Shown here: positions 22,087-61,580 of the stretch, in pieces
Layout of the letters: every line of letters starts with the position of its first letter
How positions within the stretch are numbered: the first letter of the stretch is position 1
DNA from: Pristiophorus japonicus
Lineage: Eukaryota
Assembly (NCBI RefSeq): GCF_044704955.1
Contig: NC_091977.1
Coordinates: 84,568,001 to 84,632,000, forward strand
DNA length: 64,000 nt
Direction of reading: 5' to 3'
Position numbers and translations under genes: made by a program
The notes under the pieces: model-generated
What the model was told of the DNA's origin: nothing
Database searches by the model: none
What the model saw: the letters and a program-made list of their open reading frames with translations, nothing else

Positions 22087-22296
22087 TGTTATATATGTAC
22101 ACTGGTATTTACTCTGTAAAGCCACCAGAGGGCTCATCCCCTGGAGCTCCAAGGGATCCCAAAATCCCTTGGGAGCATAGGTATTTAGGGAGGCTTCACA
22201 GGTTGGAGAGGCACTCTGGAGACCTGCAGTAAAAGACTACGGTCATACTTTACTTTGAGCTCAGTGTTCAGTCTGACTCTTTCTCCATACACAACA
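22087..22296 (+). repeat. 5' LTR of Gypsy element
   Basis: tgtta...acaaca; aligns with 26338-26548 at roughly 90% identity by eye. Confidence 0.9.
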
Positions 22297-22312
22297 ACTA
22301 GCGAACCCAAAG

Positions 22313-25300
22313 ATGCAGAGAACAGTGGGCATCCTGGAGAAATTCTCGGAGGAAGATGATTGGGAAACTTGTGGACAGATTCGACCAATACTTCGTGGCC
22401 AACGAGCTATATGGGGAACAGAGCGCTGCCAAACGAAGGGCGATCCTCCTCACTGTCTATGGGACACCAGCATATGGCCTCATGAAGAATCTGCTCACTC
22501 CAGCGAAACCCACAGAGAAATCATACGTCGATTTGTGCACACTGGTCCGAGAGCATTTGAACCCGAAGGAAAGCGTTCTGATGGCGAGATACCAGTTCTA
22601 CACCTACAAAAGGTCTGAAGGTCAGGAAGTGGCGAGTTATGTCACCGAGCTAAGACACCTTGCAGGACATTGAGAATTTGAAGGACATTTGGAGCACACG
22701 CTCAGAGACTTTTTCGTACTTGGCATTGGCCACGAAATCATACTTCACAAACTTTTGACTGTAGAGACCCCAACCTTGAGTAAGGCCATAGCGATAGCCC
22801 AGGCGTTCATTGCCAATAGGAAGAAAATCTCTCAGCACACAAGTGCTGCTACAAGTACTGTGAACAAAGTGATGTTGTTTTCGAATCGTAACGTACAGGG
22901 CAGGTCATACATACTTGCAACTGCACGTCCGCAGATGACTGAGAGTCCACCATCAAGGGTGATGAATGCAAGGCCACTAACACTTGTGTCAAAAAGAGTA
23001 CATTTGCAAGGGCTGTGGAACAATGGGACACCTCCAACGAGTGTGCAGGCAAGCTGCAAAGCCTGTTAAACCTGCAAACCACCATGTTGCAGAGGAGGAC
23101 AGATCCATGGAGGATCATGACGAACTAGAGCCTCAGATAGAGGAGGCAGAGGCACATGGGGTGCACACTATCACCACGAATTGTCCCCCGATAATGCTGA
23201 ATGCTGAATGTTGAACTAAATAGACTCCCGGTGTCAATGGCGCAGAACACGGGCATGAGCCAGTCCATCATGGGCAAAAAGACTTTCGAAAGGTTGTAGT
23301 GCAACAAGGCCTTTAGGCCAGTCTTAACTCCAGTTCGCACGAAACTAAGAACTTACACGAAAGAACTGATTCCTGTAATCGGCAGTGCTATCGTAAAGAT
23401 CTCCTACGATGGAGCGATGCACAAGCTACTACTCTGGGTGGTACCAGGCGATGGTCCCATGCTGCTCAGCAGGAGCTGGCTGGGAAAGATACGCTGGAAT
23501 TGGGATGACGTCCAAACGCTATCGCCCGCTGACGACACTTCGTGTGCCCAGGTCTTAAACAAATTTCCTTCGCTGTTCGAACCAGGCATCGGGAAATTTC
23601 AAGGAGCAAAAGTGCAGATCCAGGGGCGCAACGCATCCATCACAAGGTGAGAGCAGTACCGTACATGATGAGAGAAAGGGTAGAGATCTGCAAAGAGAGG
23701 GCATCATTTCACAGATCGAGTTAAGCGAGTGGGCCAGTCCGATTGTCCCAGTCCTCAAGGGAGACAGCACCGTCAGAATCTGTGGCGATTACAAAGTAAC
23801 TATCAATCGTTTCTCCCTGCAGGACCAATACCCACTACCAAAGCTCGACAACCTCTTTGCAACGCTGGCGGGAGGAAAGACGCTCACGAAGCTGGATCTG
23901 ACTTCAGCCTACATGACGCAGGAACTGGAAGTATCATCGAAGGCCCTCACCTGCATCAACACACACAAAGGTCTTTTTGTTTATAACAGATGCCCGTTTG
24001 GAATCCGATCAGCGGCGGCGATATTCCAGAGAAACATGGAAAACTTACTGAAGTCAGTCCCACACACCGTGGTCTTCCAGGACGACATCTTGGTCACAGG
24101 TCGGAACACAGTCGAGCATCTGCGGAACCTGGAGGAGGTTCTTAGTCGACTCAACCGCGTGGGGCTCAGGTTAAAACACTCGAAGTGCGTTTTCCTGGCG
24201 CCTGAAGTGAAGTTCCTGGGAAGGTGGATTGCGGTGGACGGCATCAGGCCCACCAACGCGAAGCCGGAGGCAATTGAGAATGCAACGAGGCCACAGAACA
24301 TGACGGAGCTGCGGTCGCTTCTGGGACTCCTGAACTACATTGGTAACTTCTTACCGGGTCTCAGCACACTGCTAGAACCACTACATGACTTACTACGAAA
24401 AGGAGGTGAATGGGTTTGGGGAAAAAGCCAAGAAAATGCCTCTGTAAAAGCGAGAAAATTGTTATGCTCAAACAAATTGCGTGTGTTGTATGATCCATGT
24501 AAGCGTTTGGTACTAGCATGTGATGCATCGTCATATGGCGCGGGTGTGTATTGCAACAAGCTAATGATTTCGGGAAACTGCAACCGGTTGCTTATGCATC
24601 CAGGAGTCTGTCTAAGGCTGAGAGAGCCTGCAGCATGATTGAAAAAGAAGCGTTAGCGTGTGTCTATGGGGTAAAGAAAATGCATCAATACTTGTTTGGC
24701 TAAAACTCGAATTGAAAACTGACCATAAGCCACTTATATCCCTGTTTTCCGAGAGTAAAGGGATAAATACCAACGCATCGGCCCACATCCAGAGATGGGC
24801 GCTCAGGTTGTCCGCATACAACTACGTCATCTATCACAGGCCAGGCACAGAAAACTGCGCCGATACTCTCAGTAGGCTGCCATTGCCCACCACGGGGGTG
24901 GAAATGGTGCAGCCTGCAGATCTAGCCATAGTTATGGAAGCATTTGAGAGTGAGCAATCACCCGTCACTGCCCAGCAGACCAAAACCTGGACAAGCCAGG
25001 GTCCCTTATTATCTCTAGTCAAAAGCTGGATGCTTCACGGGAGCTGGTCCAGTATCCCAGTGGAAATGCAGGAAGAGATAAAGCCGTTCCAGCGGCCCAA
25101 AGATGAAATGTCTATACAGGCAGACTGCCTTCTGAGGGGCAATGGAGTAGTGGTCCCCAAGGGCAGGGACACCTTCATCAATGACCTCCACAGTACTCAC
25201 CCAGGCATCATAATGATGAAAGCGATAGCCAGATCCCACGTGTGGTGGCCCTGTATTGATGCGGACTTAAGAGTCTTACATTCACAGATGTAATACATGC

Positions 25301-26304
25301 TCACAGTTAAGCAATGCACCCAGGGAGGCCCCGCTAAGTTTATGGTCTTGGCCCTCCAAACCGTGGTCTAGGGTACACGTCGACTATGCAGGCCCTTTCT
25401 TGGGTAAAATGTTCCTTATGGTTGTAGACGCGTACTCCGAGTGGATTGAATGTGAGATAATGTCGGCTAACACGTCCGCTGCCATTACTGAAAGCCTGCG
25501 GGCCATGTTTGCCACTCACAGCTTACCCGAACAACGGGCCATGTTTTACCAGTGCTGAGTTCAAAGAATTCATGACTCGTAACGGGATCAAACATGTCAC
25601 ATCTGCCCCGTTTAAACAAGCGTCCAATGGTCAGGCAGAGAGAGCAGTGCAAACCATCAAGCAAGGCTTGAAGAAGGTAACTGAAGGCTCACTGCAGACT
25701 CGCCTACCCCGAGTCCTGCTTAGCTACCACATGAGACCCCACTCACTCACTCGGATCCCACCTCCTGAACTGCTCATGAAAAGAGCGCAAGACAAGGCTC
25801 TCGTTAGTTCACCCTGATCTACATGAACAGGTAGCGAGCAGGCAGCTTCAACAAATTGCATACCATGATAGCGCAAATGTGTCATGCGAGATTGAAATCA
25901 ATGATCCTGTATTTGTATTAAATTATGGACAAGGTCCCAAGTGGCTTCCCGGCACTGTCGTGGCCAAAGAGGGGAGCAGGGTGTTTCGGGTCAAACTTTC
26001 AAATGAACTAATTCACCGGAAACACTTGGACCAAATCAAACTCAGATTCAAGGACTGTCCTGAGCAACCCACCTTGGACCCTATCTTTTTTGATTCCCCA
26101 ACATACACAACAGTGGCAACCAGCACCACGGTTGACCACGAAGCAGAACCCATTATCCACAGCTGCCCTGCAGGGCCCAACACACCAGGCAGCCCAGCAA
26201 GGCCAGCTGCACAGCAGCCCAGCGAGGGCCCAACAAATGATTCAACAACACCAGCTTTCACACCGAGAAAGGGAAGAAAGGCCCCAGATCGACTCACCTT
26301 GTAA
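22313..26304 (+). pseudogene. Disrupted gag-pol polyprotein of the Gypsy element
   Basis: Fragments: RFDQYFVAN..KRRAILLT (gag), CKGCGTMGHLQRVC, YNRCPFGIRSAAAIFQR..FQDDILV (RT), LACDASSYG and TDHKPL (RNase H), LHSTHPG and NGPCFTS..SNGQAERAV (integrase). Confidence 0.9.
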
Positions 26305-33422: not shown

Positions 33423-34733
33423 TTAAATTTGTAAATCGTTGTTATGACTTTGTAATTTCCATTGTAAATAGATTTCTTTCAACGAAGAAATCCGCATTCA
33501 AGGTTAAATTCAAAATCGGTAAACGACGATTTTAGATAAAGTCTAAAAAAAAGTATTTGATTTAATTTAAAAACTTGGGTGAAAATGATTTGGTTCGCAA
33601 TGGCCAAACAATAATCTCACTGCAACAAATATTTGAAATTCAGTAACCCTTCAGACCCGGTCATTAAACTCAAGATAGTACATATCGGAAACTATTTCAT
33701 GATGAATATACCATATTGCATCAGTATATATATATATAACCAAACGGGGATAAACAGCAAATTAGACAAAACGGGTATAATTTGGCGACTGCTGCAAACT
33801 CTTGAAAACGGAGCTAACTGCGGCTCAATCTTTTATCGGATGTTTGATTCGCAATAATTCAATTTCACATTCACCTTAAACGGAGTTTAACAAATCGTGA
33901 CGTTTCAGTAAACTCTTTTAAACACCAATTAACTAAATTCAGAATGTGTAGTATTTCAAATTTTAGTAAAATTCATGTTGCATTCGAATTCCAATATAAT
34001 TTTAAATCCGAGAAAAATTCAGTGGCCATTTCGCGCTGATTTTTCTCCGGGACCGGGTAGAAAAATAACAGATTTTCATAAACAGCATTAAATTCAAATA
34101 GTCGAATCGACGTTTTTGTATGCAACCCCACTGTATGAAACCCCCAATTATATGTGTTAATTGCAGATTTATGAGCTGTACACAACCTTTGAATGTCCCA
34201 ACCTTCTTAAAAGTGTTGCATAGTTTGATTCCAGTGTAGTTATATTAGAGATTTTGAAGCACGGTATTTTCTGAGCGTATGAATTGCTAAAACCCGATCG
34301 CCGCAACTGTATTTAAGTGGCAGTGACGAACATAAATCACAGAAAATCCAGACTTTAAAACCATCGCAATTAACATTATGCCATAGCGCGATGTCATTGG
34401 AATCGTCCTTTAACAATCAAGTTCATTTGAAGCGCGGATTATTTTAGATGCACTATTTATTTTAGATTTATTCATAATCGAGATTTATGAAACTCTGTAT
34501 TTTTTCCGATGCAATAGTTAGTTTAGATTTATTTGAACTGATGTTTAAATATATCTGCATTCCAGTAATCGTGCTGTCAGGAGGCTCACGCCGCAACCAG
34601 GGTTTGTTTCTAACACTGACACTTTGCACACACAGAACAGAAATCAGAAGAATTTCATATTTCCGCATGTCGCAGTTCTTCCTCGAGAGATGAAGTCGCC
34701 TATTCACCCGACCAATGTTAATACTGCAGTTAC

Positions 34734-35030
34734 CTGTGCTGCCATGACTCTCTGCCTCTCTGCGATCAGGTTGCATTTCTTACACTGGCACTCTCTCCAC
34801 ATGCAGAATCTCTTGTGTCCCTTCAGAGCCGACACGTACCCGTGATTCCTGCACCGAGCACACTTGGGCAAGCGAGGCGATTTCTTCGAAGCAGGCGACA
34901 CGGCGCCGGAGTTTAAAGCCTTGGAAAAATTCCCGTTCACACTGTTGCTGTTGGTGTTGAGAACAGACTCGCCGTCGCCCACCCCGGCTGCAGCCGATGC
35001 TGAAGACTTGGACCCAGCTCCGTTTGGCAT
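34734..35030 (-). CDS. dmrt1: dmrt1 coding exon 1 (99 codons, DM zinc-binding domain)
   Basis: MPN start; [51 protein letters not shown]; donor CAG|gtaact at the conserved phase-0 position; A at -3 of ATG. Confidence 0.97.
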
Positions 35031-35400
35031 CTTCCGATAAAAGTTATTTCTATTTTGTTTGGTTATTGTAATAACTGCTTCGTTTAATTTCGTGACTCGT
35101 TACTTCGCAATAGCGAGTTGTAACAAAGTTTTGGGGCTGCTGCTGGGAGCCGGGCTGCTGGTCGCCGACACAATCCCTGCCGCCGCTCTGAGGCGTCGAG
35201 CAGCAAATTGGCGGCTTTTTTGTTACCTTCCCAGACCCAGATAGTGGGCCACGCGGCTCCACCTCCTCGCCAGCCCATTGGCTCCCCGCATTGCCGGGCT
35301 CCCGCGCTCCAGCCCCGCCGAGGGCCCTGCATTGTTTCTCACTGCCATGCAGGAAACCGAAGCAACAGCAAGCATTCACAAGGCTTCTTGGAGAAAACTT
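35031..35400 (-). promoter_or_regulatory. dmrt1 5' UTR / proximal promoter, GC- and CpG-rich
   Basis: CpG-rich block 35140-35330; CCAAT on minus at 35277-35281; GC-box-like and GATA-like sites; TSS not determinable. Confidence 0.55.
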
Positions 35401-42520: not shown

Positions 42521-43384
42521 TCAAATAAGAAAAAAGACAGAATGGTGTACTTGTGCATGCTCTTCCCAGGTTGGGAATCAGGCACGTTGTTGTGCAGGGT
42601 AGAGGGAACTTTACTTTGCATCTAGATATGCTATACCTGACCTGGGAGATATTAATATTGATGCTTATGTGCATGTGCTCATAAAAGAGCAAGAGACAGA
42701 CATTAGACACTAAATGCAGGTAAAGTGTAATTATGGGCTGTTGTATAAAGGGCTTTCATTCCCCAACACCAACATCCCCAGCTTGGCTCAGTGGTAGTAC
42801 ACTCTCATCTGAGTCAAAAGGTTATAGGTTGAAGTACATAATCTAGGCTGATAAGTCAGTACAGTACTAAGGAAGTGCTGCACTGTCAGAGGACCATCTT
42901 TTTGATAAGGTTAAACTGAGGTCCTGACTACTGGAAGTTACATAATAGATCCTATGGGCTAGATTTTACACTTTTGTGCAAAAATGGACGTTATTTCCAG
43001 TATGGGCGGTAAAAATGGGTTTCCAGATTGCTGGCTTCTCGCCCATTCTCAAAGCCCCTAGTCTCCATTTTTTAAATTGGGCGTTACCGCGAGTGATATG
43101 AAATGGGCAGTAGCGTTAAATCTCTCTGACCTTCTGCCATAAAGTGTCGCCATCCTTAGCAACGGCATGGCAATACTCGGTTCCCGTGATTCAGGAGGTC
43201 AAAGGTCATCATGACATGCGCAGAAGAGGAGACAGAGAAAGAGGGAGCTGAGAGGGACTGAAGGCGTGTGTGGGTGTGGTGTGGCTGCTTTGGGAGGAAG
43301 GAGGGAGAGTTTAGAGCTTTAGAGCAAATAGGGAAATAAAAATGAGCTGTTACCAGCCACATATTTGCCCAAATTTGGCCTATA

Positions 43385-45165
43385 ATGGAGGGAGGGGAGG
43401 AGGTGTCACAGCACGCTGTGGAGAGTGATGCTGGCAAGAGCAGTGAGCTGGGAGAGGAGCACATTGGAGGGCGCAAAGGAACGAGGAGATTCTCGGATGA
43501 GGCAAATGCCTCCCTCCTGCAGGAGGTCGAGTTACGCTCGGGTGATTTGACACAGGGAGGGCATGGGAAGCCCACCCCAAAGGTCTACCAGAAGATATGG
43601 GCCAAGATAGCAGAGGTGGTCTCGTCGGTGACCAATGAGATGCATGAGGGCAACCAATGCCGCAAACGATGGAATGACCTTGTGGGATCTGCAAGAGTAA
43701 GTATTATATTTATTTACGTGTACTTACGTATTTATATAATTTGATTTGTAACAGTCATGAGTGACTATCAGCAGATGTGAGGTCTTTCACTTTTACCGGG
43801 AATGTTGTACTCAAAGCCTGCATTCACGGTGCATTCACGTGCACGTCTTTAGGTAAAGAATGATAATTATCATAATAATTATGATTACATCTGTCGGTTA
43901 TGTGTTGTATCAGTCTCTGTGACAGTACCTAGCAATGATATCACGAAATGATCTCATGCCATGTCGTCCTGTCACCTTTCACAGAAGAAGCTATCGACGA
44001 TGAGGTCCGACAGAGGCAAACAGGTGGGGGCCACCAATTGTCAGCGACATCACTAAGATGGAGGAGCGGGTGCTCACACTCATGGGGAAGCACCCCCGGA
44101 CAGCCACACAAGCATCTATAGACCATGAAGTGAAACGAAGTGAGTAAAGTTTACACCATTGCGTGATGTAAAATCAATAGATGCCACACCCACTCATATC
44201 CGAACAATCATATATGATATATGATTTCTAATTGTTGATGGTCAGGAAATATGATGTCAGTGATGATCATGATAGCGGTGGTGCTTTTGTCATGCATATG
44301 CTGTGTGTAGCGCTGGACTCACCTTGTGACCCTAGCATCCCTTTCTCCTCTAATAATCTCATTTGTGTTTTGCAGCTCAGCCATCAGCGTGGCCCAAGCA
44401 AGACCACAGAGGCCAGAAGGGGGGGGGGGGCGCAGGGCCAGACGCACCAGACGATCCTACATCTGGCGCTGAGGAGCTCCGATTCTCGCCCGTCAATCCG
44501 CTGGGTCTGTTCTCTACGAATGAGAGCGCCGACTTCGAGGAACCTGTATCACCATGCTCCAGAAGTCATTCCACCCCAAGGCCATCTAGTGTTCCTCCGG
44601 TCATTCCTGCCTCCATTCTGGAGGTACCGGCCCCAAGCACCTTGCCACAGGGCACCCCATTTGTCCCCAGGACGGCGGCGACCCACGGAGGTTTCGTGGA
44701 TGAGGAAGGTCTGGTCCACGAGTGCGACATGAGCGCGCAGCGATGGTACAGTTGTCTAGGAGGACCGTAGACATTGGTGACCAGCTCCTCGATGCATTGG
44801 GGGGCATATCCCGACAGCTGGCTACCATGACTGAGTACGTTCCACGGGTGGTGGAGGCCTTGGAGGCGATAGCCAGGAACACTGCTGGCACAGGCCTCCC
44901 AGTGGTCCCGGAGCGCGGCACTCCTCCCCTTGGTTCCGCACCACCACTGCGATCGACAGATGAGAGGCAGAACCAAGATCCTGCTTCTGGATCAGAGAAT
45001 GTTCCCCTCTCGGCATCCCCCCTCCCGTACCCGTGCAACCACCCATCTGCCTTCATCCCCTCCCAATGAGGCACCGCCGGAGGAGCTCCTCGGCCAGGCG
45101 CCATGGAGCGAGGAGGGGAAGGCATAGAGGTGAGGAGAAGAAGGAGAGGGGGGAAGGAAAGTGAG
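43385..45165 (+). pseudogene. Harbinger Myb/SANT-like DNA-binding protein gene (3 exons, frameshifted)
   Basis: RRFSDEANASLLQEV...KIWAKIAEVV...QCRKRWNDL; donor gtaagt 43697; acceptor ttcacag 43984; donor gtgagt 44140; acceptor tttgcag 44375. Confidence 0.8.
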
Positions 45166-45601
45166 GTGCATGTCCGCAGGTGATGGCTGTGTTATATCTC
45201 CATCTGGGTGTATGCAATTTGTTGTAATGTATGGGGGAAGAGGACCACCTTCCTGCTTTGCATTTGTAATCTGTGTTGCTGGACATGTTGAACATTTGAT
45301 TGATGTTAATGGTGGAAAAAGTGGGGTATGGGTGGGGGTTGGGGGTTTTTGCCCGTGATACTTATGATTTCAGATCAATGTTAGGATAAACAATTTTTTT
45401 ATTGAACATAACCTTGTTGCTCATTGTTTCAGATAGCTGGACCGTTACACACTGGTGATTCCTTAACATGAAAGGGTTAAATAAAACTTAACTTCAATCA
45501 TCGTAAACTTTAACTGGCACCAAGGTGATGGGCACCATTGATGTCTAAGCTGCACACACACACAGCAGTGTGTCAGTGTTGTCACTCACAGCAATGTTCT
45601 T

Positions 45602-46805
45602 TCAGGCAAATCGTTCAGATATCAGCTCCTCGTGTAAGAGTCTTGCAGCTACGTAGCCACCACAGGCCCTTTCCTGTGGTCTGGAGGGAGGCGTGGACAT
45701 GGTTGCACAGCCAGCCTGATTGTTTGGCCCTAGGTCAGCATCCAGCCCCTCGTAGTCCTCTTCCTCTTTCTCCTGAGGTGGAGCATCAGTCCCTTCTGGC
45801 AATTATTATCCCCTCCTGATAGCCAGGTTGTGCAGCATGGAGCACACGACCACGAATTTAGCTACTTGCTCAGGGTTATATTGTAGCTCCCCTCCTGAGT
45901 GGTCCAGACATCTGAAGCATTGCTTAAGCACACTAATTGTTTTCTGGACCACATTGCATGTGTCTCTATGCCTCTCGTTATATCACTTCTCGGCCTCGGT
46001 GTGGGTGTCACGCCGGGGGTGGGGTCATCAGCCAGGTGGCTAGGCCATATCAGTTGTCACCAAGCATCCAGCATTGTCCTTGTGGCTGACTCTTAAACAT
46101 GTCAGAGACAGCGCTCTCACACAGGATGTGATCCTCATCGAAGCTGCCCGGACATTTGGCATTCACTGCCATTATGATCTGGTTGTGGTCGACAATTAGT
46201 TGGATCTTCAGGGAGTGAAATCCTTTTCTGATACTAAAAAGGTCTGGGTCCTGAGAAGGTGCCCGCATGGCGATGTGAGTGCACTGTATTCCTCCCTGCA
46301 CCCTGGGGAACTTAGCAATGAGGTAGAATGCTCCAGCCCTCACAGTCTGACTCCGTAGTCATGGGGAAGCTGATAAAGTCCATCCTTCGTGCGTACAGGG
46401 CCTCCATGACCTGTTTAATGCAGTAATGTGTGGCATGATGAGACAGAGGGGAAATCTCGACCTTGGAGGCCCGAAAGGAACTGGACGCATAGAAAGACAG
46501 TGCCGTGGTGACCTTGACCTCGACCGACACTGATGTCCTGATGGCAGGCTGCATATGTGGCCTGATGAGTATTTCATTGATCACCACTTTGTGGAAGCGC
46601 AGTCTCCGAAGGCAGGTGTTCTCGAACACGTCGAGGTAAGACCTCTTTTCCCTGTACGTGCGGGGTGTGTATGGTCTGGCCCTCCTCCTCATTCTTGCAT
46701 GACTTAAATTGGGCACATAATGATGTGCATCACACATTGAGCCATCTGCACTCTGTAGCATCTCCGTGTTAATTGACGCAGGCTGAGTAGTGGCTGGCCC
46801 CATTG
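45602..46805 (-). pseudogene. Harbinger (HARBI1-like) DDE transposase, frameshifted
   Basis: CLRRLRFHK, VEVKVTTALSFYAS, FPRVQGGIQCTHI (first catalytic D replaced), RKGFHSL, WMLGD, CSMLHNLA. Confidence 0.88.
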
Positions 46806-48429
46806 CAATGAAAGTATAATAGCGATTGATCAGAAGCAGTAATTTCCTCACTAAAGTAATCAACCCCCAATAGTCCAGAGTCTGAAAATATGTCTGTTGA
46901 GATGGTCACTTCACCTGTGAAGAACTCCAGAAGTCAATCCAAACTCCCCCAAAGTTGAAGCAGCCTTTTGAATGAAGCGACTTGCGATTTTAAAAATGAC
47001 ACTCACACCGCTGGGATTAGTTCCACTTTTCCCGGGCGTTTTTTTGGGGGCGAGCAATATTGTGGGTGATGTATGTGCGAGGTGGTGAAAGTGACGCTGG
47101 GCGATCTCCTGGGCGTTAGTTTCAGCAAATATGATCTTTACAACAAAAAAAAGTGGGCGGGCAATATTATTGAATCTCTGCATTAATTCAGTGCGTAAAC
47201 TAATGCCGGGCGATATTTTGGCCACTGATTTCACCCATTCTGATGATTCCGCCCAAAAAAAGTGGCCGAACGGTATTATTTTTTCCTAGCGTTACACACA
47301 TGGGGAAAGGAACGCTCAGCGATAAGTGTCCGAAAAATGCCCATCAGTTTCCATTTTGTGGCTAAATGGGCGATATCTGGGCGTTATGCGTCATTTCAGC
47401 GGTAAAATGGACGTTAAGTGGGAATTAAGCATGCAAAAAAAGTGGAAAATCTAGCCCATTGCATTATTCAAAGAAGAGCAGAAGAGTTCTCCCCATGACC
47501 TGGTCAGCATTTATCCCTCAACCAACACAACCAAGCATAGGTTAACTGGTCATTATCTCATTGATGTTTGTGGGACCTTGCTGTGAGCAAAATGACTGGT
47601 GCATTTGCCTACAATATAACAATGACTACACTTCAATGCAATAATTGATTGGCTATGAAATACATTGGCATTTCTCAAAAATATGAAAGGCAATATATAA
47701 ATGTAAGTTCTTTATTTTTATTGAACAGAAAAATAAGTTTATTGCTATAATTAAAATAAACAGATCACTAATGATGCAAATGAATGTGATATCATAGGAC
47801 GCTGGTAATATTAAATTTAAAAGGCATCCAGAGGAAGTAATGGCATCAAAATTATATGTCAATGTATCTAAATACTTTTGGAACATCCGTAACACTTCAA
47901 AGAAAATGAATATGACAGCTAAAAAGAACTCAAATTCCTAACATAATTGAATACTACCAAAATGGCAAAAAGGGAATTCGTGCTCCAAAGAGGGTTGAGA
48001 ACAGAGATGGATTTCAATGTTCAAAGATTTAAAGAACATCATAAAGGTGCATTGTTGTAAAAAAAAAAGACTTGCTGAAGGGCAAGGTCGAAAGGATCTT
48101 GGAAATAACTCCAGAGGCAAACACTTCCCAATATCTATGCTGTTATCAAACAGATGGCTGGGTGTTGTGCCCCGCTCCATTGCTTGCTCACGCATTCTGC
48201 TCATTCCTCCACATTGGGTTTGCCTCACTTCATTTTTACCTCTTCTTGCTTTGAAAAACTTTGAGAAACTGTTTAAAATCCATTTTGAGCCTTTGAAAAT
48301 ATTTTTTCCTTCCATATGTGGCCACTTATCTTTGAATCTGGACATTGCAGTGTTCACGGGGAGGCTATCCTATCTGGCACTAGTTGTGAATGCATGATTA
48401 TTTCCGATAGATAAATGTATGTTTAAAAA

Positions 48430-49405: not shown

Positions 49406-49449
49406 TTAAAAGCATAAACTGAAGCCCTAGTCTTAGTGTGACTTATAAG

Positions 49450-50226
49450 GATGCTGAGAATGACGTGAGTATCACGTGTACTGAGTTGGTCTTACCGCAG
49501 GGAAAGGGTCCACAGCCAGATAGGGAATGGAAGACCAGCAGGAAGAGTAGTGCAAGGAAGGTAGTGCAGGGGTCCCCTGCGGTCATCCCCCTGCAAAACA
49601 GATACACCGTTTTGAGTACTGTTGAGGGGAATGACTCATCAGGGGAGGGCAGCAGCAGCCAAGTTCATGGCACCGTGGCTGGCTCTGCTGCACAGGAGGG
49701 CAAGAAAAAGAGTGGGACAGCAATAGTGATAGGGGATTCAATGGTGAGGGGAATAGATAGGCGTTTCTGCGGCCGCGACAGAGACTCCAGGATGGTATGT
49801 TGCCTCCCTGGTGCAAGGGTCAAGGATGTCTCGGAGCGGGTGCAGGACATTCTGAAATGGGAGGGAGAACAGCCAGTTGTCGTGGTGCACATTGGTACCA
49901 ACGACATAGGTAAAAAAAGGGATGAGGTCCTACGAAACGAATTTAAGGAGCTAGGAGCTAAATTAAAAAGTAGGACCTCAAAAGTAGTAATCTCGGGATT
50001 GTTACCAGTGCCACGTGATAGTCAGAGTAGGAATCGCAGGATAGCGCAGATGAATACGTGGCTTGAGCAGTGGTGCAGCAGGGAGGGATTCAAATTCCTA
50101 GGGCATTGGGACCGGTTCTGGGGGAGGTGGGACCAGTACAAACCGGACGGTCTGCACCTGGGCAGGACCGGAACCAATGTCCTAGGGGGAGTGTTTGCTA
50201 GTGCTGTTGGGGAGGATTTAAACTAA
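49450..50226 (+). CDS. CR1 ORF1 (5'-truncated) with SGNH/GDSL esterase domain
   Basis: IVIGDSMVR, LPGA, VHIGTND, DGLHL: SGNH blocks I, II, III, V. Confidence 0.85.
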   Translation, partial: DAENDVSITCTELVLPQGKGPQPDREWKTSRKSSARKVVQGSPAVIPLQNRYTVLSTVEGNDSSGEGSSSQVHGTVAGSAAQEGKKKSGTAIVIGDSMVRGIDRRFCGRDRDSRMVCCLPGARVKDVSERVQDILKWEGEQPVVVVHIGTNDIGKKRDEVLRNEFKELGAKLKSRTSKVVISGLLPVPRDSQSRNRRIAQMNTWLEQWCSREGFKFLGHWDRFWGRWDQYKPDGLHLGRTGTNVLGGVFASAVGEDLN

Positions 50227-50411
50227 TATGGCAGGGGGATGGGAACCAATGCAGGGAGACAGAGGGAAACAAAAAGGAGGCAAAAGCAAAAGACAGAAAG
50301 GAGATGAGGAAAAGTGGAGGGCAGAGAAACCCAAGGTAAAGAACAAAAAGGGCCACTGTACAGCAAAATTCTAAAAGGACAAAGGGTGTTAAAAAAACAA
50401 GCCTGAAGGCT

Positions 50412-53210
50412 TTGTGTCTTAATGCAAGGAGTATCCGCAATAAGGTGGATGAATTAATTGTGCAAATAGATGTTAACAAATATGATGTGATTGGGATTAC
50501 GGAGACGTGGCTCCAGGATGATCAGGGCTGGGAACTCAACATTCAGGGGTATTCAACATTCAGGAAGGATAGAATAAAAGGAAAAGGAGGTGGGGTAGCA
50601 TTGCTGGTTAAAGAGGAGATTAATGCAATAGTTAGGAAAGACATTAGCTTGGATGATGTGGAATCTATATGGGTAGAGCTGCAGAACACCAAAGGGCAAA
50701 AAACGTTAGTAGGAGTTGTGTACAGACCTCCAAACAGTAATAGGGATGTTGGGGAGGGCATCAAACAGGAAATTAGGGGTGCATGCAATAAAGGTGTAGC
50801 AGTTATAATGGGTGACTTTAATATGCACCTAGATTGGGCTAGCCAAACTGGAAGCAATACGGTGGAGGAGGATTTCCTGGAGTGCATAAGGGATGGTTTT
50901 CTAGACCAATATGTTGAGGAACCAACTAGGGGGGAGGCCATCTTAGACTGGGTGTTGTGTAATGAGAGAGGATTAATTAGCAATCTCATTGTGCGAGGCC
51001 CCTTGGGGAAGAGTGACCATAATATGGTGGAATTCTGCATTAGGATGGAGAATGAAATAGTAAATTCAGAGACCATGGTCCAGAACTTAAAGAAGGGTAA
51101 CTTTGAAGGTATGAGGCATAAATTGGCTAGGATAGATTGGCAAATGATACTTAGGGGGTTGACTGTGGATGGGCAATGGCAGACATTTAGAGACCGCATG
51201 GATGAAGTACAACAATTGTACATTCCTGTCTGGCGTAAAAATAAAAAAGGGAAGGTGGCTCAACCGTGGCTATCTAGGGAAATCAGGGATAGTATTAAAG
51301 CCAAGGAAGTGGCATACAAATTGGCCAGAAATAGCAGAGAACCTGGGGACTGGGAGAAATTTAGAACTCAGCAGAGGAGGACAAAGGGTTTGATTAGGGC
51401 AGGGAAAATGGAGTACGAGAAGATGCTTGCAGGGAACATTAAGGCGGATTGCAAAAGTTTCCATAGGTATGTAAAGAGAAAAAGGTTAGTAAAGACAAAC
51501 GTAGGTCCCCTGCAGTCAGAATCAAGGGAAGTCATAACGGGGAACAAAGAAATGGCAGACCAATTGAACAAGTACTTTGGTTCGGTATTCACTAAGGAGG
51601 ATACAAACAACCTTCCGGATATAAAAGGGGTCAGAGGGTCTAGTAAGGAGGGGGAACTGAGGGAAATCTTTATTAGTCGGGAAATTGTGTTGGGGAAATT
51701 GATGGGATTGAAGGCCGATAAATCCCCAGGGCCTGATGGACTGCATCCCAGAGTACTTAAGGAGGTGGCCTTGGAAATAGCGGATGCATTGACAGTCATT
51801 TTCCAACATTCCATTGACTCTGGATCAGTTCCTATCGAGTGGAGGGTAGCCAATGTAACCCCACTTTTTAAAAAAGGAGAGAGAGAGAAAACAGGAAATT
51901 ATAGACTGGTCAGCCTGACCTCAGTAGTGGGTAAAATGATGGAATCAATTATTAAGGATGTCATAGCAGTGCTTCTGGAAAATGGTGACATGATAGGTCC
52001 AAGTCAGCATGGATTTGTGAAAGGGAAATCATGCTTGACAAATCTTCTGGAATTTTTTGAGGATGTATCCAGTAAAGTGGACAAAGGAGAACCAGTTGAT
52101 GTGGTATATTTGGACTTTCAGAAGGCTTTCGACAAGGTCCCACACAAGAGATTAATGTGCAAAGTTAAAGCACATGGGATTGGAGGTAGTGTGCTGACAT
52201 GGATTGAGAACTGGTTGTCAGACAGGAAACAAAGAGTAGGAGTAAACGGGTACTTTTCAGAATGGCAGGCAGTGACTAGTGGGGTGCCGCAAGGTTTTGT
52301 GCTGGGGCCCCAGCTGTTTACATTGTACATTAATGATTTAGACGAGGGGATTAAATGCAGTATCTCCAAATTTGCGGATGACACTAAGTTGGATGGCAGT
52401 GTGAGCTGCGAGGAGGATGCTATTAGGCTGCAGAGTGACTTGGATAGGTTAGGTGAGTGGGCAAATGCATGGCAGATGAAGTATAATGTGGATAAATGTG
52501 AGGTTATCCACTTTGGTGGTAAAAACAGAGAGACAGACTATTATCTGAATGGTAACAGATTAGGAAAAGGGAAGGTGCAACGAGACCTGGGTGTCATGGT
52601 ACATCAGTCATTGAAGGTTAGCATGCAGGTACAGCAGGCGGTTAAGAAAGCAAATGGCATGTTGGCCTTCATAGCGAGGGGATTTGAATACAGGGGCAGG
52701 GAGGTGTTGCTCCAGTTGTACAGGGCCTTGGTGAGGCCACACCTGGAGTATTGTGTACAGTTTTGGTCTCCTAACTTGAGGAAGGACATTCTTGCTATTG
52801 AGGGAGTGCAGCAAAGATTCACCAGACTGATTCCCGGGATGGCGGGACTGACCTATCAAGAAAGACTGGATCAACTGGGCTTGTATTCACTGGAGTTCAG
52901 AAGAATGAGAGGGGACCTCATGGAAACGTTTAAAATTCTGACGGGTTTAGACAGGTTAGATGCAGGAAGAATGTTCCCAATGTTGGGGAAGTCCAGAACC
53001 AGGGGTCACAGTCTGAGGATAAGGGGTAAGCCATTTAGGACCGAGATGCGGAGGAACTTCTTCACCCAGAGAGTGGTGAACCTGTGGAATTCTCTACCAC
53101 AGAAAGTAGTTGAGGCCAATTCACTAAATATATTCAAAAGGGAGTTAGATGAAGTCCTTACTTCTCGGGGGATCAAGGGTTATGGCGAGAAAGCAGGAAT
53201 GGGGTACTGA
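50412..53210 (+). CDS. CR1 ORF2: APE endonuclease plus reverse transcriptase (932 aa open)
   Basis: NARS, ITETWL, GDFN, SDH; YLDFQKAFDKVPH, GVPQG(F)VLGP, FADD; true start lies upstream, with a TAA at 50337. Confidence 0.93.
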   Translation: MCLNARSIRNKVDELIVQIDVNKYDVIGITETWLQDDQGWELNIQGYSTFRKDRIKGKGGGVALLVKEEINAIVRKDISLDDVESIWVELQNTKGQKTLVGVVYRPPNSNRDVGEGIKQEIRGACNKGVAVIMGDFNMHLDWASQTGSNTVEEDFLECIRDGFLDQYVEEPTRGEAILDWVLCNERGLISNLIVRGPLGKSDHNMVEFCIRMENEIVNSETMVQNLKKGNFEGMRHKLARIDWQMILRGLTVDGQWQTFRDRMDEVQQLYIPVWRKNKKGKVAQPWLSREIRDSIKAKEVAYKLARNSREPGDWEKFRTQQRRTKGLIRAGKMEYEKMLAGNIKADCKSFHRYVKRKRLVKTNVGPLQSESREVITGNKEMADQLNKYFGSVFTKEDTNNLPDIKGVRGSSKEGELREIFISREIVLGKLMGLKADKSPGPDGLHPRVLKEVALEIADALTVIFQHSIDSGSVPIEWRVANVTPLFKKGEREKTGNYRLVSLTSVVGKMMESIIKDVIAVLLENGDMIGPSQHGFVKGKSCLTNLLEFFEDVSSKVDKGEPVDVVYLDFQKAFDKVPHKRLMCKVKAHGIGGSVLTWIENWLSDRKQRVGVNGYFSEWQAVTSGVPQGFVLGPQLFTLYINDLDEGIKCSISKFADDTKLDGSVSCEEDAIRLQSDLDRLGEWANAWQMKYNVDKCEVIHFGGKNRETDYYLNGNRLGKGKVQRDLGVMVHQSLKVSMQVQQAVKKANGMLAFIARGFEYRGREVLLQLYRALVRPHLEYCVQFWSPNLRKDILAIEGVQQRFTRLIPGMAGLTYQERLDQLGLYSLEFRRMRGDLMETFKILTGLDRLDAGRMFPMLGKSRTRGHSLRIRGKPFRTEMRRNFFTQRVVNLWNSLPQKVVEANSLNIFKRELDEVLTSRGIKGYGEKAGMGY

Positions 53211-54457
53211 AGTTTCATGTTCAGCCATGAACTCATTGAATGGCGGTGCAGGCTAGAAGGGCTGAATGGCCTGCTCCTGCACCTATTTTCTATGGATAAA
53301 TTCTCCACTCTCGTGTTCCTAATGCAGATTCTCACCCGCTGGGATTGCATGTTGATAAATTGCATGAATGCAGCCTACGATTTTCTGTCAATTAATTTCA
53401 ATGGGCAGAAGATCATTTGACTGCATATGCGTAATTTCTTGATGTATTAGGTTTTAGAATCATCTATATTCTTAAAATATTTTATGCTCTTTTTTTCTGC
53501 AAAGCTACATTTCTCTGCAAAGCTACAAAATACTAGCTGCTGAGCTTCAGAAGGATCCGTTACTTAAAGGGTCTTCCACAGTGTGGTACTCTGGATCAGA
53601 GGCCACCTCAGCCACAGCAGAACTGCCAGTTGAACCTAGAATTCCTGCAGAAAGGGCTTCATATCACTTGAGGCATCAAAACAGCAACATTCTTGAGTTG
53701 GCTTCCTCCTAATGGGCTGAGCAGATTCACGAGATAGCCAACATGCTCCACCAACTGCACCCTGCCCGTTTCTTACAATGCAACTATATCAGTGCATCTG
53801 GCGGTTACCAGACTGACACCAGTTCGGAGATTTCCAACGCCCTGAGGAAGCAGGCTCATGCCCTCTTCGAAAAGTTCTAGATTGCTGGTGAGCTGCCGGT
53901 ATGCCATAATCTACCTTGTGTGACTCACACTCCCCTGGATATGATTTTCTATACTAGTGGCTTACATGGTTTACCATAGAGAAGGTCCCAGTGGAGATCT
54001 AGAGAGAAGGTACAACTTCCAATAGCCTGGGTGTCACACGTTTGTTCGTGGCATCCAGGTTCCAGATGCCACACAGTTGTTTCCCCATTTGCCACAGATT
54101 TTAACTTCTTCCTGTGCATTGTTACTGATCTCTACGATGTGTGTTACCTTTAGCAGACCTGGATGAAGATGACTTATCTATGGAGAACAGGGGATTGTTC
54201 TTCACTGCAATTCCTTTGAAATAAACATTCATTGGAGATAGCTGAAAGATAAAAGCAAATACCAGAGAGGCACAGAAGAAGTTATGACGTGCAGGATTAT
54301 GGACATGGAATGGACAAGAACAATATATTAAAAAATTCACATTTAGCAAAAGAGGTACTGCCTCCTTTGTTCAGAAATTTAAAATGATTGGCACTTGTGT
54401 GCTCAAGCCAACTGCCAACTAAGTGTATTTGCTTTGTGGTTTCCTTGCTGGGATGTG

Positions 54458-56110: not shown

Positions 56111-56700
56111 AGAAACATAGAAATATAGAAACATAGAAATCTACAGCGCAGAAGGAGGCCATTTTGGCCCATCGTGTCCACGCCGGCCGACAAAGAGCCA
56201 CACGGACCTTGGTCAGCAGCCCTGAAGGTTACATATAAACCTATGAACAATGAACAATGGCGGAAAGATAAAAAGCATCCGGCCCAACCAGTCCATCCCA
56301 GACAACTGCAACACCTCTTGCACCGCAACATTTTACAGTCCACCCCAACCGGAACCATGCGATCCCCCGGGAGAGGCAAAAAAACAGATAAAATCCAAGA
56401 CCAACTGGGGAAAAAGATCTGGGAAAATTCCTGTCCGACACATCCAGGTGATTGAAACTAGTCCAGGAGATCACCCTGGACATATTCGATTCCCTGCAGT
56501 ACTTACCTTTGTATCTGCGCCAACCAACAAGAAGTTATCCAGTCCAATCCCACTTACCAGCCCTAGGTCTGAAACCCTGCAGATTAAGGCACTTCAAGTG
56601 CCCATCCAAGCACCTTTTAAATGTGGTGCAGGTTTTTGCATCCACCACCCTTCCAGGCAGTGAGTTCCAGACTCCCACAACCTTCTGCGTGAAGAAGTTC
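56111..56700 (-). mobile_element. CR1 subfamily B 3' end with long 3' UTR
   Basis: NFFTQKVVGVWNSLPGRVV; (CTATGTTT)n tail at 56111-56140; inverse homolog of 61040-61580. Confidence 0.88.
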
Positions 56701-56975
56701 GAGCAGGAGATGGGAGTTCGAGCAGCCAGCGACCTATAATGGCCCAGCAATCGGGAGTCGGGGAGTTCGAGCAGTAGGTGGGAGTTCGAGCAGCCAGTGG
56801 CCTATAAAGACCCAGAAGTCGGGAGTCGGGGAATTCGAGCAGGAGGCGGGAGTTCGAGCAGCCAGCGGCCTATAAAGGCCCAGCAGTCGGGAGTCGGGCA
56901 GGAGGCGGGAGTTCGAGCAGCCAGCGGCCTATAAAGGCCCAGCAGTCGGGAGTCGGGAGTTCGAGCAGCCAGCCA
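56700..56975 (+). repeat. CR1 5' UTR tandem repeats with TATA-like motifs
   Basis: About 4.5 units of gggagttcgagcagccagcggcctataaaggcccagcagtcgggagtcg. Confidence 0.85.
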
Positions 56976-59900
56976 GTGCAGCTGCAGCAGGGTGAGAAGG
57001 CAAAAAAGAAGTAGAAAGAAATCGAAAGGTGACGTCACAGTCAAGGGGGTAAGTAATTGGTGACTAGTTTTTCTTTTTCTTTTCTTTATCAGTAAGTAAT
57101 CTTTAGCATTATTGTTGCCAAATTAAGTTAATCTAGGGGTTAAGTCATGGCAGGAGAGCTCGGACACGTGTTATGCTTCTCCTGTACTATGTGGGAAATC
57201 AGGGAAGCTTCCAGTGTCCCTGACGACTACATATGTGGGAAATGTATCCGGCTGCAGCTCCTGACAGACTGCATTGTGGCACTGGAGCTGCGGGTGGATT
57301 CACTCTGGAGCATCCACAATGCTGAGAATGACGTGAATAGCACGTTTAGTGAATTGGTCTTACCGGAGGTAAAGGTTACACAGCCAGATAGGGGATGGGT
57401 GACCAACACGAAGAGCAGTGGAAGGAAGGTAGTGCAGGGGAACCCTGTGGCCATCCCCCTGCAAAACAGATACACCGCTTTGGGTACTGTTGAGGGGGAT
57501 GACTCATCAGGGGAGGGCAGCAGCAGCCAAGTTCATGGCACTGTGGGTGGCTCTGCTGCACAGGAGGGCAGGAAAAAAATGGGAGTGCTATAGTGAAAGG
57601 GGATTCGATTGTAAGGGGAATAGATAGACGTTTCTGCGGCCGCAACCTAGACTCCAGGATGATACGTTGTCTCCCTGGTACAAGGGTCAAGGATGTCTCG
57701 GAGCGGGTGCAGGACATTGTGAAAAGGGAGGGTGAACAGCCAGTTGTCGTGGTGCATATAGGTACCAACGATATAGGTAGAAAGCGGGATGAGGTTCTAC
57801 AAGATGAATTTAGGGAGCTAGGAGCTAAATTAAAAAATAGGACCTCAAAAGTAGTAATCTCAGGATTGCTACCAGTGCCACGTGCTAGCCAGATTGAAAT
57901 CGCAGGATACCTCAGATGAATACGTGGCTTGAGGAGTGGTGGGAGGGATTCAAATTCCTGGGACATTGGAACCGGTTCTGAGGGAAGTGGGACTAGTACA
58001 AACCGGACGGTCTGCACCTGGGCAGGACCGGAACCAATGTCCGAGGGGGAGTGTTGGCTAGTGCTGTTCGGGAGGAGTTAAACTAATATGGCAGGGGGAT
58101 GGGAACCTATGCAGGGAGACAGAGAGAAGTAGAATGGGGGCAGAAGCAAAAGATAGAAAGAAGAAATGTAGAAGTGGAGGGCAGAGAAACCCAAGGCAAA
58201 AAGCAAAAAGGACCACATTACAGCAAAATCCTAAAGGGGCAAAGTGTGTTAAAAAGACAAGCGTGAAGGCTCTGTGCCTCAATGTGAGGAGTATTCGGAA
58301 TAAGGTGGACGAATTAACTGCACACATAGCAGTTAACGGATATGATTTCATTGGCATCACGGAGAAATGGCTCTATACATAAGACAAACTTTTTAGTTCT
58401 TATTCACATTTTACTTCAATTACTGAAGTTAAAAAATTATGGGTAACTCAACATCCAGGGGCATTCAACATTTAGGAAGGATAGATAGAAAGGAAAAGGA
58501 GGTGGGGTGACGTTACTGATTAAAGAGGAAATTAATGCAATAGTAAGAAAGGACATGAGCTTGGATGATGTGGAATCTATATGAGTGGAGCTATGGAATA
58601 CCAAAGGGCAGAAAACGCTAGTGGGAGTTGTGTACAGACCACCAAACAGTAGTAATGAAGATGGGGACAGCATCAAACAAGAAATTAGGGATGTGTGCAA
58701 TAAAAGTACAGCAGTTATCATGGGTGACTTTAATCTACATATTGATTGGGCTAACCAAACTGGTAGCAATGCGGTGGAGGAGGATTTCCTTGAGTGTATT
58801 AGGGATGGTTTTCTAGACCAATATGTCGAGGAACCAACTAGAGGGCTGGCCATCCTAGACTGGGTGATGTGTAATGAGAAAGGACTAATTAGCAATCTTG
58901 TTGTGTGAGGCCCCTTGGGGAAGAGTGACCATAACATGGTAGAATTCTTTATTAAGGTGGAGAGTGACACAGTTAATTCAAAGACTAGGGTCCTGAACTT
59001 AAGGAAAGGTAACTTTGATGGTATGAGACGTGAATTGGCTAGAAAAGACTGGCAAAGGATACTCAAAGGGTTGACGGTGGATAAGCAATGGCAAACATTT
59101 AAAGATCACATGGATGAACTTCAACAATTGTACATCCCTATCTGGAGTAAAAATACAACGGGGAAGGTGGCTCAACCGTGGTTAACAAGGGAAATTAAGG
59201 ATAATGTTAAATCCAAGGAAGAGGCATATAAATTAGCCAGAAAAAGCAGCAAACCTGAGGACTGGGAGAATTTTGTAATACAGCAGGGGAGGACAAAGCA
59301 TTTAATTTGGAGGGGGACAATAGAGTATGAGAGGAAGTTTTCTGGGAACATAAAAACTAACTGCAAAAGCTTCTATAGATACGTGAAGAGAAAAAGATTA
59401 GTGAAAACAAACGTAGGTCCCTTGCAGTCAGATTCAGGTAAATTTATAATGGGGAACAAAGAAATGGCGGACCAGTAAAACAAATACTTTGGTTCTGTTT
59501 TCATGAAGAAAGACTCAAATAACCTTCCGGAAATATTAGGGGACCAAGAGTCTCATGAGGAGGAGGAACTGAAGGATATCCTTATAAAGCGGGAAATTGT
59601 GTTAAGGAAATTGATGGTATTGAAGGCCGATAAATCCCCAGGGCTTGATAGTCTACATCCCAGATTACTTAAGGAAGTGGCCATAGAAATAGTGGATGCA
59701 TTGGTGATCATTTTCCAACAGTCTATTCACTCTGGATCAGTGCCTATGGACTGGAGGGTAGCTAATGTAACACTGCTGTATAAAAAAGGAGGGAGAGAGA
59801 AAACGGATAATTATAGACTGGTTAGCCTGACATCAGTAGTGGGGAAAATGTTGGAATCAATTATTAAAGATGAAATAGCAGCGCATTTGGAAATCAATGA

Positions 59901-60347
59901 GAGTCTCAGTCCAAGTCAGCATGGATTTATGAAAGGGAAATAATGCTTGACAAATCTTCTGGGACTTTTTGAGGATGTAACTAGTAGAGTGGACAAGGGA
60001 GAACCCGTGGATGTGGTGTATTTGGACTTTCAAAAGGCTTTTGACAAGGTCCCACACAAGAGATTGGTGTGCAAAATCAAAGCACATGGTAACGGGAGTA
60101 ATGTACTGTTTGGATAGAGAACTGGTTGGCAGACAGGAAACAGAGAATCGGGATAAACGGGTCCTTTTCAGAATGGCAGGTAGTGACTAGTGGAGTGCCG
60201 CAGGGCTCAGTGCTGGGACCCCAGCTATTTACAATATACATTAATGATTTAGATGAAGGAATTGAGTGTAATATCTCCAAGTTTGCAGATGACACTAAAC
60301 TGGGTGGCAGTGTGAGCTGTGAGGTGGATGCTAAAAGGCTGCAGGGT
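56700..60347 (+). mobile_element. CR1 subfamily A with 5' UTR, ORF1 and disrupted, 3'-truncated ORF2
   Basis: Tandem 5' UTR units; ORF1 CFSC..CGKC zinc finger, coiled coil and GDS/GTND/DGLH esterase (57147-58086, frameshifted); ORF2 ends at [14 protein letters not shown]. Confidence 0.93.
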
Positions 60348-60371
60348 GTCATCTACAAACTTCTTAATCAT

Positions 60372-61580
60372 ACACTAAAATTGGCTGTGTGGTTGATAAT
60401 GAAGAGGAAAGTCATGGGCTGCAGGAGGATATCAATCTACTGGTCAGGTGGGCAGAACAGTGGCAAATGGAATTTAATTCAGAGAAGTGTGAGGTGATGC
60501 ACTTTGGGAGAGCTAATAAAGAAAGGGTATACACATTAAGCGGTAGGCCACTTAATAATGTAGATGAACAAAGGGACCTTTGCGTGTTTGTCCACAGATT
60601 CCTGAAAGTAGTAGGCCAGGTGGATAAGGTGGTTAAGAAGGCATAAGGAATGCTTGCCTTTATTGGCCGAGACATAGAATATAAGAGCAGGGAGGTTATG
60701 CTTAAATTGTATAATACTTTGGTTAGGCCACAGCTGGAGTACTGCGTGCAGTTCTGGTCGCCATATTATAGGAAGGACATGATCGCACTAGAGAGGGTGC
60801 AATGGAGATTTACTAGGATGCTGCCTGGAATGGAGAATCTTAGTTATGAGGATAGGCTGGGTTTGTTCTCATTGGAACAGAGCAGGTTGAGAGGAGACCT
60901 CATTGAGGTGTACAAAGTATTGAGGGGCCTGGACATAGTGGATAGTAAGGGCCTATTTCCATTGATGGAGGAGTCTATTACGAGGGGACTTAGTTTTAAG
61001 GTGGTTGGTGGAAGGTTTAGAGGGGATTTGAATGGGGGCTTCTTTACGCAGAGGGCTGTGGGGATCTGGAACTCGCTGTCTGGAAGAATGGTGGATGCAG
61101 AAACTCTCACCATTTTTAAGGGATGGTTGGATGGGCACTTAAAGTGCCGTAACCTGCAGGGCTATGGACCTGGAGCTCGTAATTGGGATTAGACTGGATG
61201 ACCTTTTGTTGGACGGCGCAGACATAATGGTAAGTACTGCAGGAATCGAATACAGCCAGGGTGATCTCCTCGAAACACTTTCGATCACCTGGATAATTCG
61301 GAGAGGAATTTTCCCAGATTTTTTCCCCCCTAAATCGGCCTGGGTTTTTATCTGGTTTTTGACTCTCCCAGTAGATCACATGGCTCCGGTTGGGGTGGAG
61401 TGTAGAATGTTTCAGTATAAGGGATGTCACAGTTGTGTGAGGTAGACTGGTTGGGCTGGGTACTCTTTGCCTTTCCGTCATTGTTCATAGGTTTATATAT
61501 AACCTTCAGGGCTGCTGACCAAGGGCCGTGCGGCTCTTTGTCGGCCAGCGTGGACAGCTGTAAATTTCTATGTTTCTATG
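60372..61580 (+). mobile_element. CR1 subfamily B 3' part
   Basis: [47 protein letters not shown], long 3' UTR, ttctatgtttctatg tail. Confidence 0.92.

Follow-up and report, generated by a model that had tools for sequence, protein, structure and literature searches.

A candidate signal for programmed -1 ribosomal frameshifting between ORF1 and ORF2 of vertebrate CR1 retrotransposons

How ORF2 is translated from the bicistronic RNA of LINE retrotransposons has long been debated. Mammalian L1 and silkworm SART1 both have such an RNA with low ORF2 output, and the preliminary description of the locus presented here had ascribed reinitiation to both. For SART1, the accessible part of PMC3708506 confirms this and names a UAAUG overlap; for L1, the accessible part of PMC11485995 confirms AUG-independent translation of ORF2 and qualifies reinitiation with a "perhaps". 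Dictyostelium TRE5-A and TRE3-A, likewise APE-type LINEs, are said in the accessible part of PMC5911963 to require a -1 frameshift for ORF2, although they reside in amoebozoan hosts and have unrelated ORF1s. Among viruses, the accessible part of PMC5009743 lists U_UUA_AAC, used by coronaviruses, among the most shift-prone sites, and gives G_UU(A), in the form G_UUA_AAC, as the site of equine arteritis virus (EAV), in agreement with the preliminary description; the same source describes the retroviral Gag-Pol arrangement of an upstream structural ORF and a polymerase ORF in the -1 frame.

According to the accessible part of PMC13343379, CR1 is the dominant retrotransposon group of most vertebrates and makes up 22–34% of elasmobranch genomes, and canonical vertebrate CR1 elements (ScyCan_CR1-1a, AllMis_CR1-6a) have the same esterase ORF1 and APE-RT ORF2 as the elements described here. 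The window, that is, the whole 64-kb stretch of Pristiophorus japonicus DNA that was analysed, contains two copies, both of which mark the ORF1/ORF2 junction of a CR1 LINE. ORF1 matches the SGNH esterase family (Pfam PF13472, E=1.5e-13), and PDB 4C1B, the ZfL2-1 ORF1 esterase, matches a close ORF1 relative (P0001, E=9e-30). ORF2 carries an APE endonuclease (EN) followed by a reverse transcriptase (RT) (PF03372, PF14529, PF00078), and no protease domain was found in a Pfam search of both ORFs. The closest named ORF1 relatives by protein are those of sharks and rays; by eye, the catshark consensus ScyCan_CR1-1a, classified as LINE/CR1 (accessible part of PMC13343379), is nearly identical in sequence across the junction. 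The 3' end of copy 1 reads ...TTTTCTATG near 53295, with one imperfect unit resembling the TTCTRTGA repeat given for the 3' end of bird CR1 in the accessible part of PMC2612034. One shark-type CR1 ORF1 with 57% identity (P0007) is filed under Pseudomonas aeruginosa at NCBI and likely represents host contamination of a bacterial assembly.

ORF reading and Pfam searches of the 64-kb window showed that both copies are dead: copy 1 is truncated at its 5' end and has its ORF2 frame interrupted by a TAA at 50337, and copy 2 has frameshifts and stops; the coordinates of their features are collected in the table. The likeness of copy 2 to copy 1 ends at 60348, and positions 60349–61580 belong to the 3' portion of another, more distantly related CR1 family (67% identity), copy 2 and this segment together being a nested or chimeric element. 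Tandem repeats of 59–68 bp with TATAAA occupy positions 56696–56968, at the apparent 5' end of copy 2. Elsewhere, the window holds a DMRT-family gene, with an exon encoding a DM DNA-binding domain at 34704–35099 on the minus strand (PF00751, E=1.5e-22), and, at 22277–26304 on the plus strand, a broken LTR-retrotransposon-like gag-pol remnant with RT and RNase H-like domains, which we take to be Gypsy. Positions 43346–46905, with a Myb/SANT-like domain (PF13873) on the plus strand and transposase-like fragments on the minus strand, the second ORF being without a Pfam match, presumably resemble a Harbinger-type DNA transposon.

Table. Features of the two CR1 copies in the window
Feature	Position	Strand	Remarks
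Copy 1 ORF1	49441..50226	+	5'-truncated, from about residue 55 of 315; C-terminal SGNH esterase; ends ...GEDLN*
TAG closing the -1 frame	50199..50201	+	18 nt 5' of the heptamer; same place in lineages A, A2, B, C, D, E
Candidate -1 slip site T_TTA_AAC	50217..50223	+	From reading and lineage comparison
ORF1 stop TAA	50224..50226	+	Adjoins the heptamer; TAG instead in lineage C
G-rich element GG-CA-GGGGG-AT-GGG and two further GGG	50230..50266	+	Candidate stimulator
-1 frame linker	50223..50420	+	68 codons, heptamer to EN NARS motif; K/R-rich, fast-evolving
In-frame ATG, codon 30	50304..50306	+	Lineage A/A2 only
Sporadic TAA (family: CAA)	50337..50339	+	Breaks copy 1 ORF2 frame
ORF2 remainder, APE endonuclease and reverse transcriptase	50340..53210	+	956 open codons
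Copy 2 ORF1, lineage B	57147..58086	+	Frameshifted, degenerate
Copy 2 slip site G_TTA_AAC and TAA	58077..58086	+	Heptamer 58077–58083, stop 58084–58086
Copy 2 ORF2 frame: linker, EN, part of RT	58083..60348	+	Several stops; insertion near 58374–58441

Re-reading of copy 1 bore out the junction as first described: ORF1 ends in GAT TTA AAC TAA, with T_TTA_AAC, a canonical X_XXY_YYZ heptamer, in zero-frame register, and the EN-RT frame (mod3=0, against mod3=1 for ORF1) lies in -1 relative to ORF1 and is open upstream only to the TAG, which leaves an overlap of 25 nt. The same geometry was found again in copy 2, where GTTAAAC, the EAV-type exception to the canonical heptamer, precedes TAA and the -1 frame, closed upstream by a TAG at 58059, is open to 58380, inside EN. 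At the other codon positions of the copy 1 ORFs, a canonical in-register heptamer occurs at 1 of 1,217.

The preliminary description had omitted the TAA at 50337–50339, which breaks the ORF2 frame of copy 1. Exact genome 26-mers over this site number 95 with TAA and 18,072 with CAA, which rules out this stop as the mark of an active sub-lineage needing no fusion; it is present in 16 of the 30 loci nearest copy 1, a share that arises because those loci were ranked by likeness to copy 1. An exact 26-mer taken from the 5' half of the CR1 family of copy 1 is found in at least 18,072 genome copies, and 5 of 25 lineage A2 loci have an intact ORF1 with the -1 frame open to the end of the locus; this family is a very large, recent expansion with long copies.

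To compare junctions within the genome (5.9 Gb), it was searched with six queries, one of which ended 5' of the junction while the other five contained the junction or the final LN. The searches returned 170 loci, or 169 after removal of one duplicate; both window copies are among them, as are some nine near-identical lineage-C loci from contig C23. When the esterase tails were clustered with the last eight codons left out, they fell into four deep lineages, A/A2/B, C (with a side group, C2, of two loci, uninformative for frame), E, and D, with 56–76% nucleotide identity between groups. The comparison was made between source lineages because dead copies escape selection. Loss of the heptamer across copies had been named beforehand as an observation that would speak against frameshifting; (T/G)TTAAAC followed by TAA or TAG is present in the majority sequence of every lineage, and the exact heptamer is kept in 142 of the 169 loci, which are not independent counts because the lineages share ancestry. 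A lower within-family mismatch at the heptamer was not used as support, since dead copies are unselected and the queries bias it. The lineage-C loci L065–L067, L072–L075, L080, and L084 on contig C23 are near-identical and clustered together, and are probably segmental or tandem duplications rather than retrotranspositions.

The preliminary description had called for a comparison of the heptamer with neighbouring synonymous sites, and the last 68 ORF1 codons provided this control. With Met, Trp, and the final two codons set aside, 19 columns have one and the same amino acid in lineages B, C, E, and D. One codon is common to the four lineages in 3 of these 19 columns, all three two-fold degenerate; none of the 12 columns with three or more synonymous codons is fixed, nor is any of the four Leu columns. 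The last two ORF1 codons are TTA and AAC in every lineage, while TTA accounts for 4 of the 32 other Leu codons and AAC for 5 of the 18 other Asn codons. Since TTA-AAC is fixed and 0/12 control columns are, the constraint acts on nucleotides.

The same LN* ending would also be expected if the two residues were kept for the C-terminal helix of the esterase and the heptamer were an inherited by-product, with ORF2 translated through internal entry or from a spliced or shorter RNA. The LN lies 26 residues from the DGxH motif in most proteins with this ending, a point in favour of this explanation, but protein constraint does not fix synonymous codons, LN also ends tails of 22–39 residues, and the solved ZfL2-1 esterase construct stops at I302 (accessible part of PMC3905857). 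With regard to splicing, the stop that closes the -1 frame supplies, 18 nt upstream in all shark lineages, an AG readable as a splice acceptor; by eye, the crocodilian consensi in the accessible part of PMC13343379 read TGA, not AG, at this position, and no joint at 50201/50202 is among those listed, a weak observation from contigs only. Protein constraint is further opposed by proteins in which Leu gives way to Gly or Lys, always with a compatible preceding residue (Q or S), as described below, and we regard this explanation as very unlikely. The -1 frame stop itself, exactly 18 nt 5' of the heptamer (TAG in A, A2, B, C, D, and E, and TGA in the crocodilian consensi, by eye), may end the translation of prematurely shifted ribosomes or be a by-product of the ORF1 codons.

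Among 53 close matches, all 37 complete ORF1s end in LN, preceded by G, T, A, D, S, E, or C. A profile search yielded 150 distant ORF1 representatives, 91 of them with a complete C-terminus, of which 46 end in LN, 9 in QGN (all of the GN enders), and 2 in SKN (both of the KN enders). At an X_XXA_AAC site, the residue before N can be L, G, K, or P and the one preceding it is restricted, in agreement with the observed ends, and the QGN and SKN ends would correspond to G_GGA_AAC and A_AAA_AAC, respectively. Together with the fixed TTA-AAC codons, which contrast with 0/12 control columns, these variants show conservation of the site beyond amino-acid constraint. The C-terminal tripeptide fits a canonical heptamer in 56/91 distant ORF1s versus 3.9% of internal tripeptides. 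A heptamer-compatible end is absent in the other 35/91 and present in 10/23 after 50% dereplication; therefore, the site is not universal among esterase ORF1s. Five distant ORF1s (P0142, P0144, P0175, P0187, and P0196) keep xKN at a distance of 10–15 residues from the stop, in line with an internal A_AAA_AAC and a longer overlap.

The preliminary description had also called for a look at reptile and bird CR1s: crocodilian consensi carry the motif, and named LN-ending ORF1s include those of a snake, a turtle, three lizards, and a swallow, in addition to a frog, sharks, and rays. One ray protein (P0033) and one turtle protein (P0097) are naturally joined, with the esterase running into FKL, which is the -1 reading of TTT AAA CT. 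The opening 400 letters of every consensus in the accessible supplement of PMC13343379 were scanned for the motif TTTAAACTAG/TAA. Judged by eye, 17 of 20 matches fall at the end of ORF1; because the motif itself was the query, they speak for its presence and not for its frequency. The carriers in this supplement are alligator, crocodile, bowfin, bullfrog, coelacanth, elephant shark, two rays, catshark, dogfish, and one teleost 'Crack' element, and the alligator consensus AllMis_CR1-6a has GGGGGATGGG at +11, the same offset as in the window copies. Contigs of three other organisms show variants at 50216 and 50227 and, among the variants listed, none at 50217–50226; they lose coverage in the linker, and a fourth run gave only 3 contigs. 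No relative was confirmed in viral, metagenome, and prokaryote collections, and the neighbouring stretch L061 yielded no further junction. A search for longer fused proteins, a weak test, gave among 8,000 scored candidates one weak match that is not a fusion.

The region between the heptamer and EN bears on how ribosomes reach ORF2. From the heptamer to the NARS motif, the linker has 68 codons in A, A2, and B, 57 in C, 60 in E, and 71 in D, and the linkers are mostly unalignable past the first dozen codons; the -1 register is nonetheless found in all four, for which the chance expectation is 1 in 27. Except for the TAA sampled in A, the -1 frame of the majority sequences is free of stops; each of the other two frames contains 1–10. 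The chance of the -1 frame staying open to the first Met is 0.22, 0.011, 0.012, and 0.046 for the four lineages.

If ORF2 were instead translated by termination and reinitiation of the L1/SART1 type, ribosomes would resume translation within the linker, with or without a lineage-specific AUG, and release a free ORF2 protein. AUG-independent translation of L1 ORF2, perhaps by reinitiation (accessible parts of PMC11485995 and PMC5009743), and the UAAUG of SART1 (accessible part of PMC3708506) provide precedents, and in-frame AUGs are present in the linkers of A, B, E, and part of D. Their positions had been noted to differ between the window copies (50304 in copy 1 and 58134 in copy 2), which was confirmed, and a conserved in-frame AUG, which would have spoken against frameshifting, was not observed among the lineages: the first in-frame ATG is at codon 30 in A and A2, 20 in B (strong context, 30/30 copies), 58 in E (17/25 copies), and 44 in D (12/30 copies), these AUGs are non-homologous between lineages, and C has none. 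In lineage C, 14/27 copies are open to EN and all 14 have a linker without Met; in copies with the catalytic ETW in frame (codons 83–85), the first Met lies 3' of ETW, the frameshifted L062 being the exception. No near-cognate start codon before EN is common to the lineages.

The ATG just 3' of the stop (50228 and 58088) is out of frame, as the preliminary description had stated, and lies in the +1 frame in both copies. In A and B, this first AUG has a strong context (AAT ATG G) and would capture scanning ribosomes; A2 has lost it. A UAAUG overlap with the AUG in the ORF2 frame is absent from the window copies (TAATATG, AUG +1) and from all lineage majorities. In the accessible part of PMC13343379, two Squalus consensi (SquAca_CR1-17a and -6c) have the heptamer followed by TAATG, so that stop and start overlap in SART1 fashion and the AUG is in frame with ORF2; they count in favour of reinitiation and possibly reflect a switch of mechanism or dual use. 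Reinitiation leaves unexplained the fixed TTA-AAC codons and the switch to QGN and SKN, as well as the constant -1 register and the frame that is open 5' of any AUG, and we consider it improbable. For -1 frameshifting, the four lineages share a downstream ORF in the -1 frame that is open from the slip site and has no common start codon.

Of the elements of a frameshift signal, the stimulator is the least certain. The accessible part of PMC5009743 gives spacers of 5–9 nt, or 12–15 nt for factor-bound elements, and describes quadruplex-stimulated frameshifting in synthetic constructs only, with no natural case as of 2016. At the usual distance of 5–9 nt downstream of the heptamer, no stable fold common to the lineages was found; structure prediction gave neither a stable hairpin nor a pseudoknot stem 3' of the heptamer (MFE -8.1, z -1.6 and -0.4), and only weak folds were obtained in all lineages with folding tools that are blind to pseudoknots and long-range pairing. 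Hairpin stimulators were rejected as weak and not common to the lineages, and the negative z-scores of lineage A were discounted as an artefact of purine-rich shuffles around a fold of -8 kcal. A search for Rfam frameshift elements gave no match apart from a single chance snoRNA match (E=0.26). The absence of a strong stimulator fold is a further point for reinitiation.

The preliminary description had proposed four G-tracts as the stimulator, and their positions (50234–38, 50241–43, 50254–56, and 50264–66) and the alteration of the fourth in copy 2 were confirmed. A G-run that begins 9–11 nt 3' of the heptamer is present in all lineages, so this part of the proposal stands, while only A, A2, and B have all four GGG tracts, which excludes a four-tract G-quadruplex as the general stimulator. 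The G-rich stretch spans +7 to +20 downstream of the heptamer; a two-tier quadruplex is predicted 7 nt 3' of the heptamer in B, C, C2, and E, and not in A, A2, and D, and one Squalus and one Aldrovandia consensus in the accessible part of PMC13343379 lack the G-run. The stimulator is likely the G-run, acting as a two-tier quadruplex or a protein-bound linear element, possibly aided by a pause at the adjacent stop.

The same fusion could be made by ordinary translation if transcriptional slippage at the T3-A3 runs added a base in a minority of transcripts, which would produce the same frame relation and conserve the same short motif. The runs are just three bases long and the first base varies (T or G), the X_XXY_YYZ register of codons, which ribosomal slippage alone requires, is preserved, and the QGN and SKN variants match ribosomal slip classes; moreover, no insertion at the site is among the listed variants of contigs, which drop rare variants. 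Transcriptional slippage thus appears exceedingly unlikely.

Altogether, comparative sequence data indicate that a real, conserved, and likely functional -1 frameshift signal is present at the vertebrate CR1 ORF1/ORF2 junction, and that CR1 ORF2 is probably translated by programmed -1 frameshifting at (U/G)_UUA_AAC, giving an ORF1-linker-EN-RT fusion. The Gag-Pol-like fusion suggested in the preliminary description is in this respect supported by the comparison of lineages and species. In the proposed mechanism, the majority of ribosomes would stop at UAA or UAG and release free ORF1p (315 aa), while in a minority tRNA-Leu on UUA and tRNA-Asn on AAC would slip back to UUU or GUU and AAA. The post-slip product would read ...GEDLN-LIWQGDGNQCR..., with TGTNVLGGVFASAVGEDLNLIWQGDGNQCR as the predicted tryptic junction peptide, and the fusion would comprise about 1,310 aa (315 plus 995 codons). 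With no protease domain detected, the fusion would likely remain uncleaved, and its coiled coil could bring it into ORF1p multimers. The heptamers and their register are the same as in the coronavirus and EAV sites, while CR1 differs from the viral sites in that no pseudoknot or strong stem-loop was found, the stop adjoins the heptamer, and there is no protease domain; unlike the proposed CR1 fusion, L1 and SART1 yield a free ORF2p (accessible parts of PMC11485995 and PMC3708506).

A full-text literature search found no proposal of CR1 frameshifting; an earlier mention in older CR1 papers or Repbase notes is possible. The accessible part of PMC13343379 names no mode of ORF2 translation; the term 'frameshift' does not occur in its main text and visible supplement, nor 'CR1' in the first 300,000 characters of PMC5009743, and the motif has no match in the readable supplements of PMC2734521, PMC4120745, and PMC3708506. 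Frameshifting in CR1 would be a known mechanism that is new for vertebrate LINEs as far as this search shows, with the Dictyostelium TRE elements as the precedent among LINEs. A broader scenario is doubtful as a whole and is offered tentatively: -1 frameshifting could be ancestral in esterase-type CR1 of jawed vertebrates and some distant hosts, with slip sites switching between UUUAAAC, GUUAAAC, GGGAAAC, and AAAAAAC, driven by a short G-quadruplex or a G-run-binding factor in place of a pseudoknot, and an unprocessed Gag-Pol-like protein of 1,310 residues could tie EN-RT to a membrane-binding esterase oligomer.

The frameshift reading would account for the invariant LN* at the end of ORF1 from sharks to birds, which is otherwise odd, and the conserved slip site makes ORF2 translation in CR1 testable. 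If the reading is true, CR1 ORF2 starts placed at the first ATG are wrong, screens for intact elements should score the heptamer and the linker, and engineered CR1 assays would need the native junction. Slippage would then set the ORF1p:ORF2p ratio of CR1, as it does in retroviruses.
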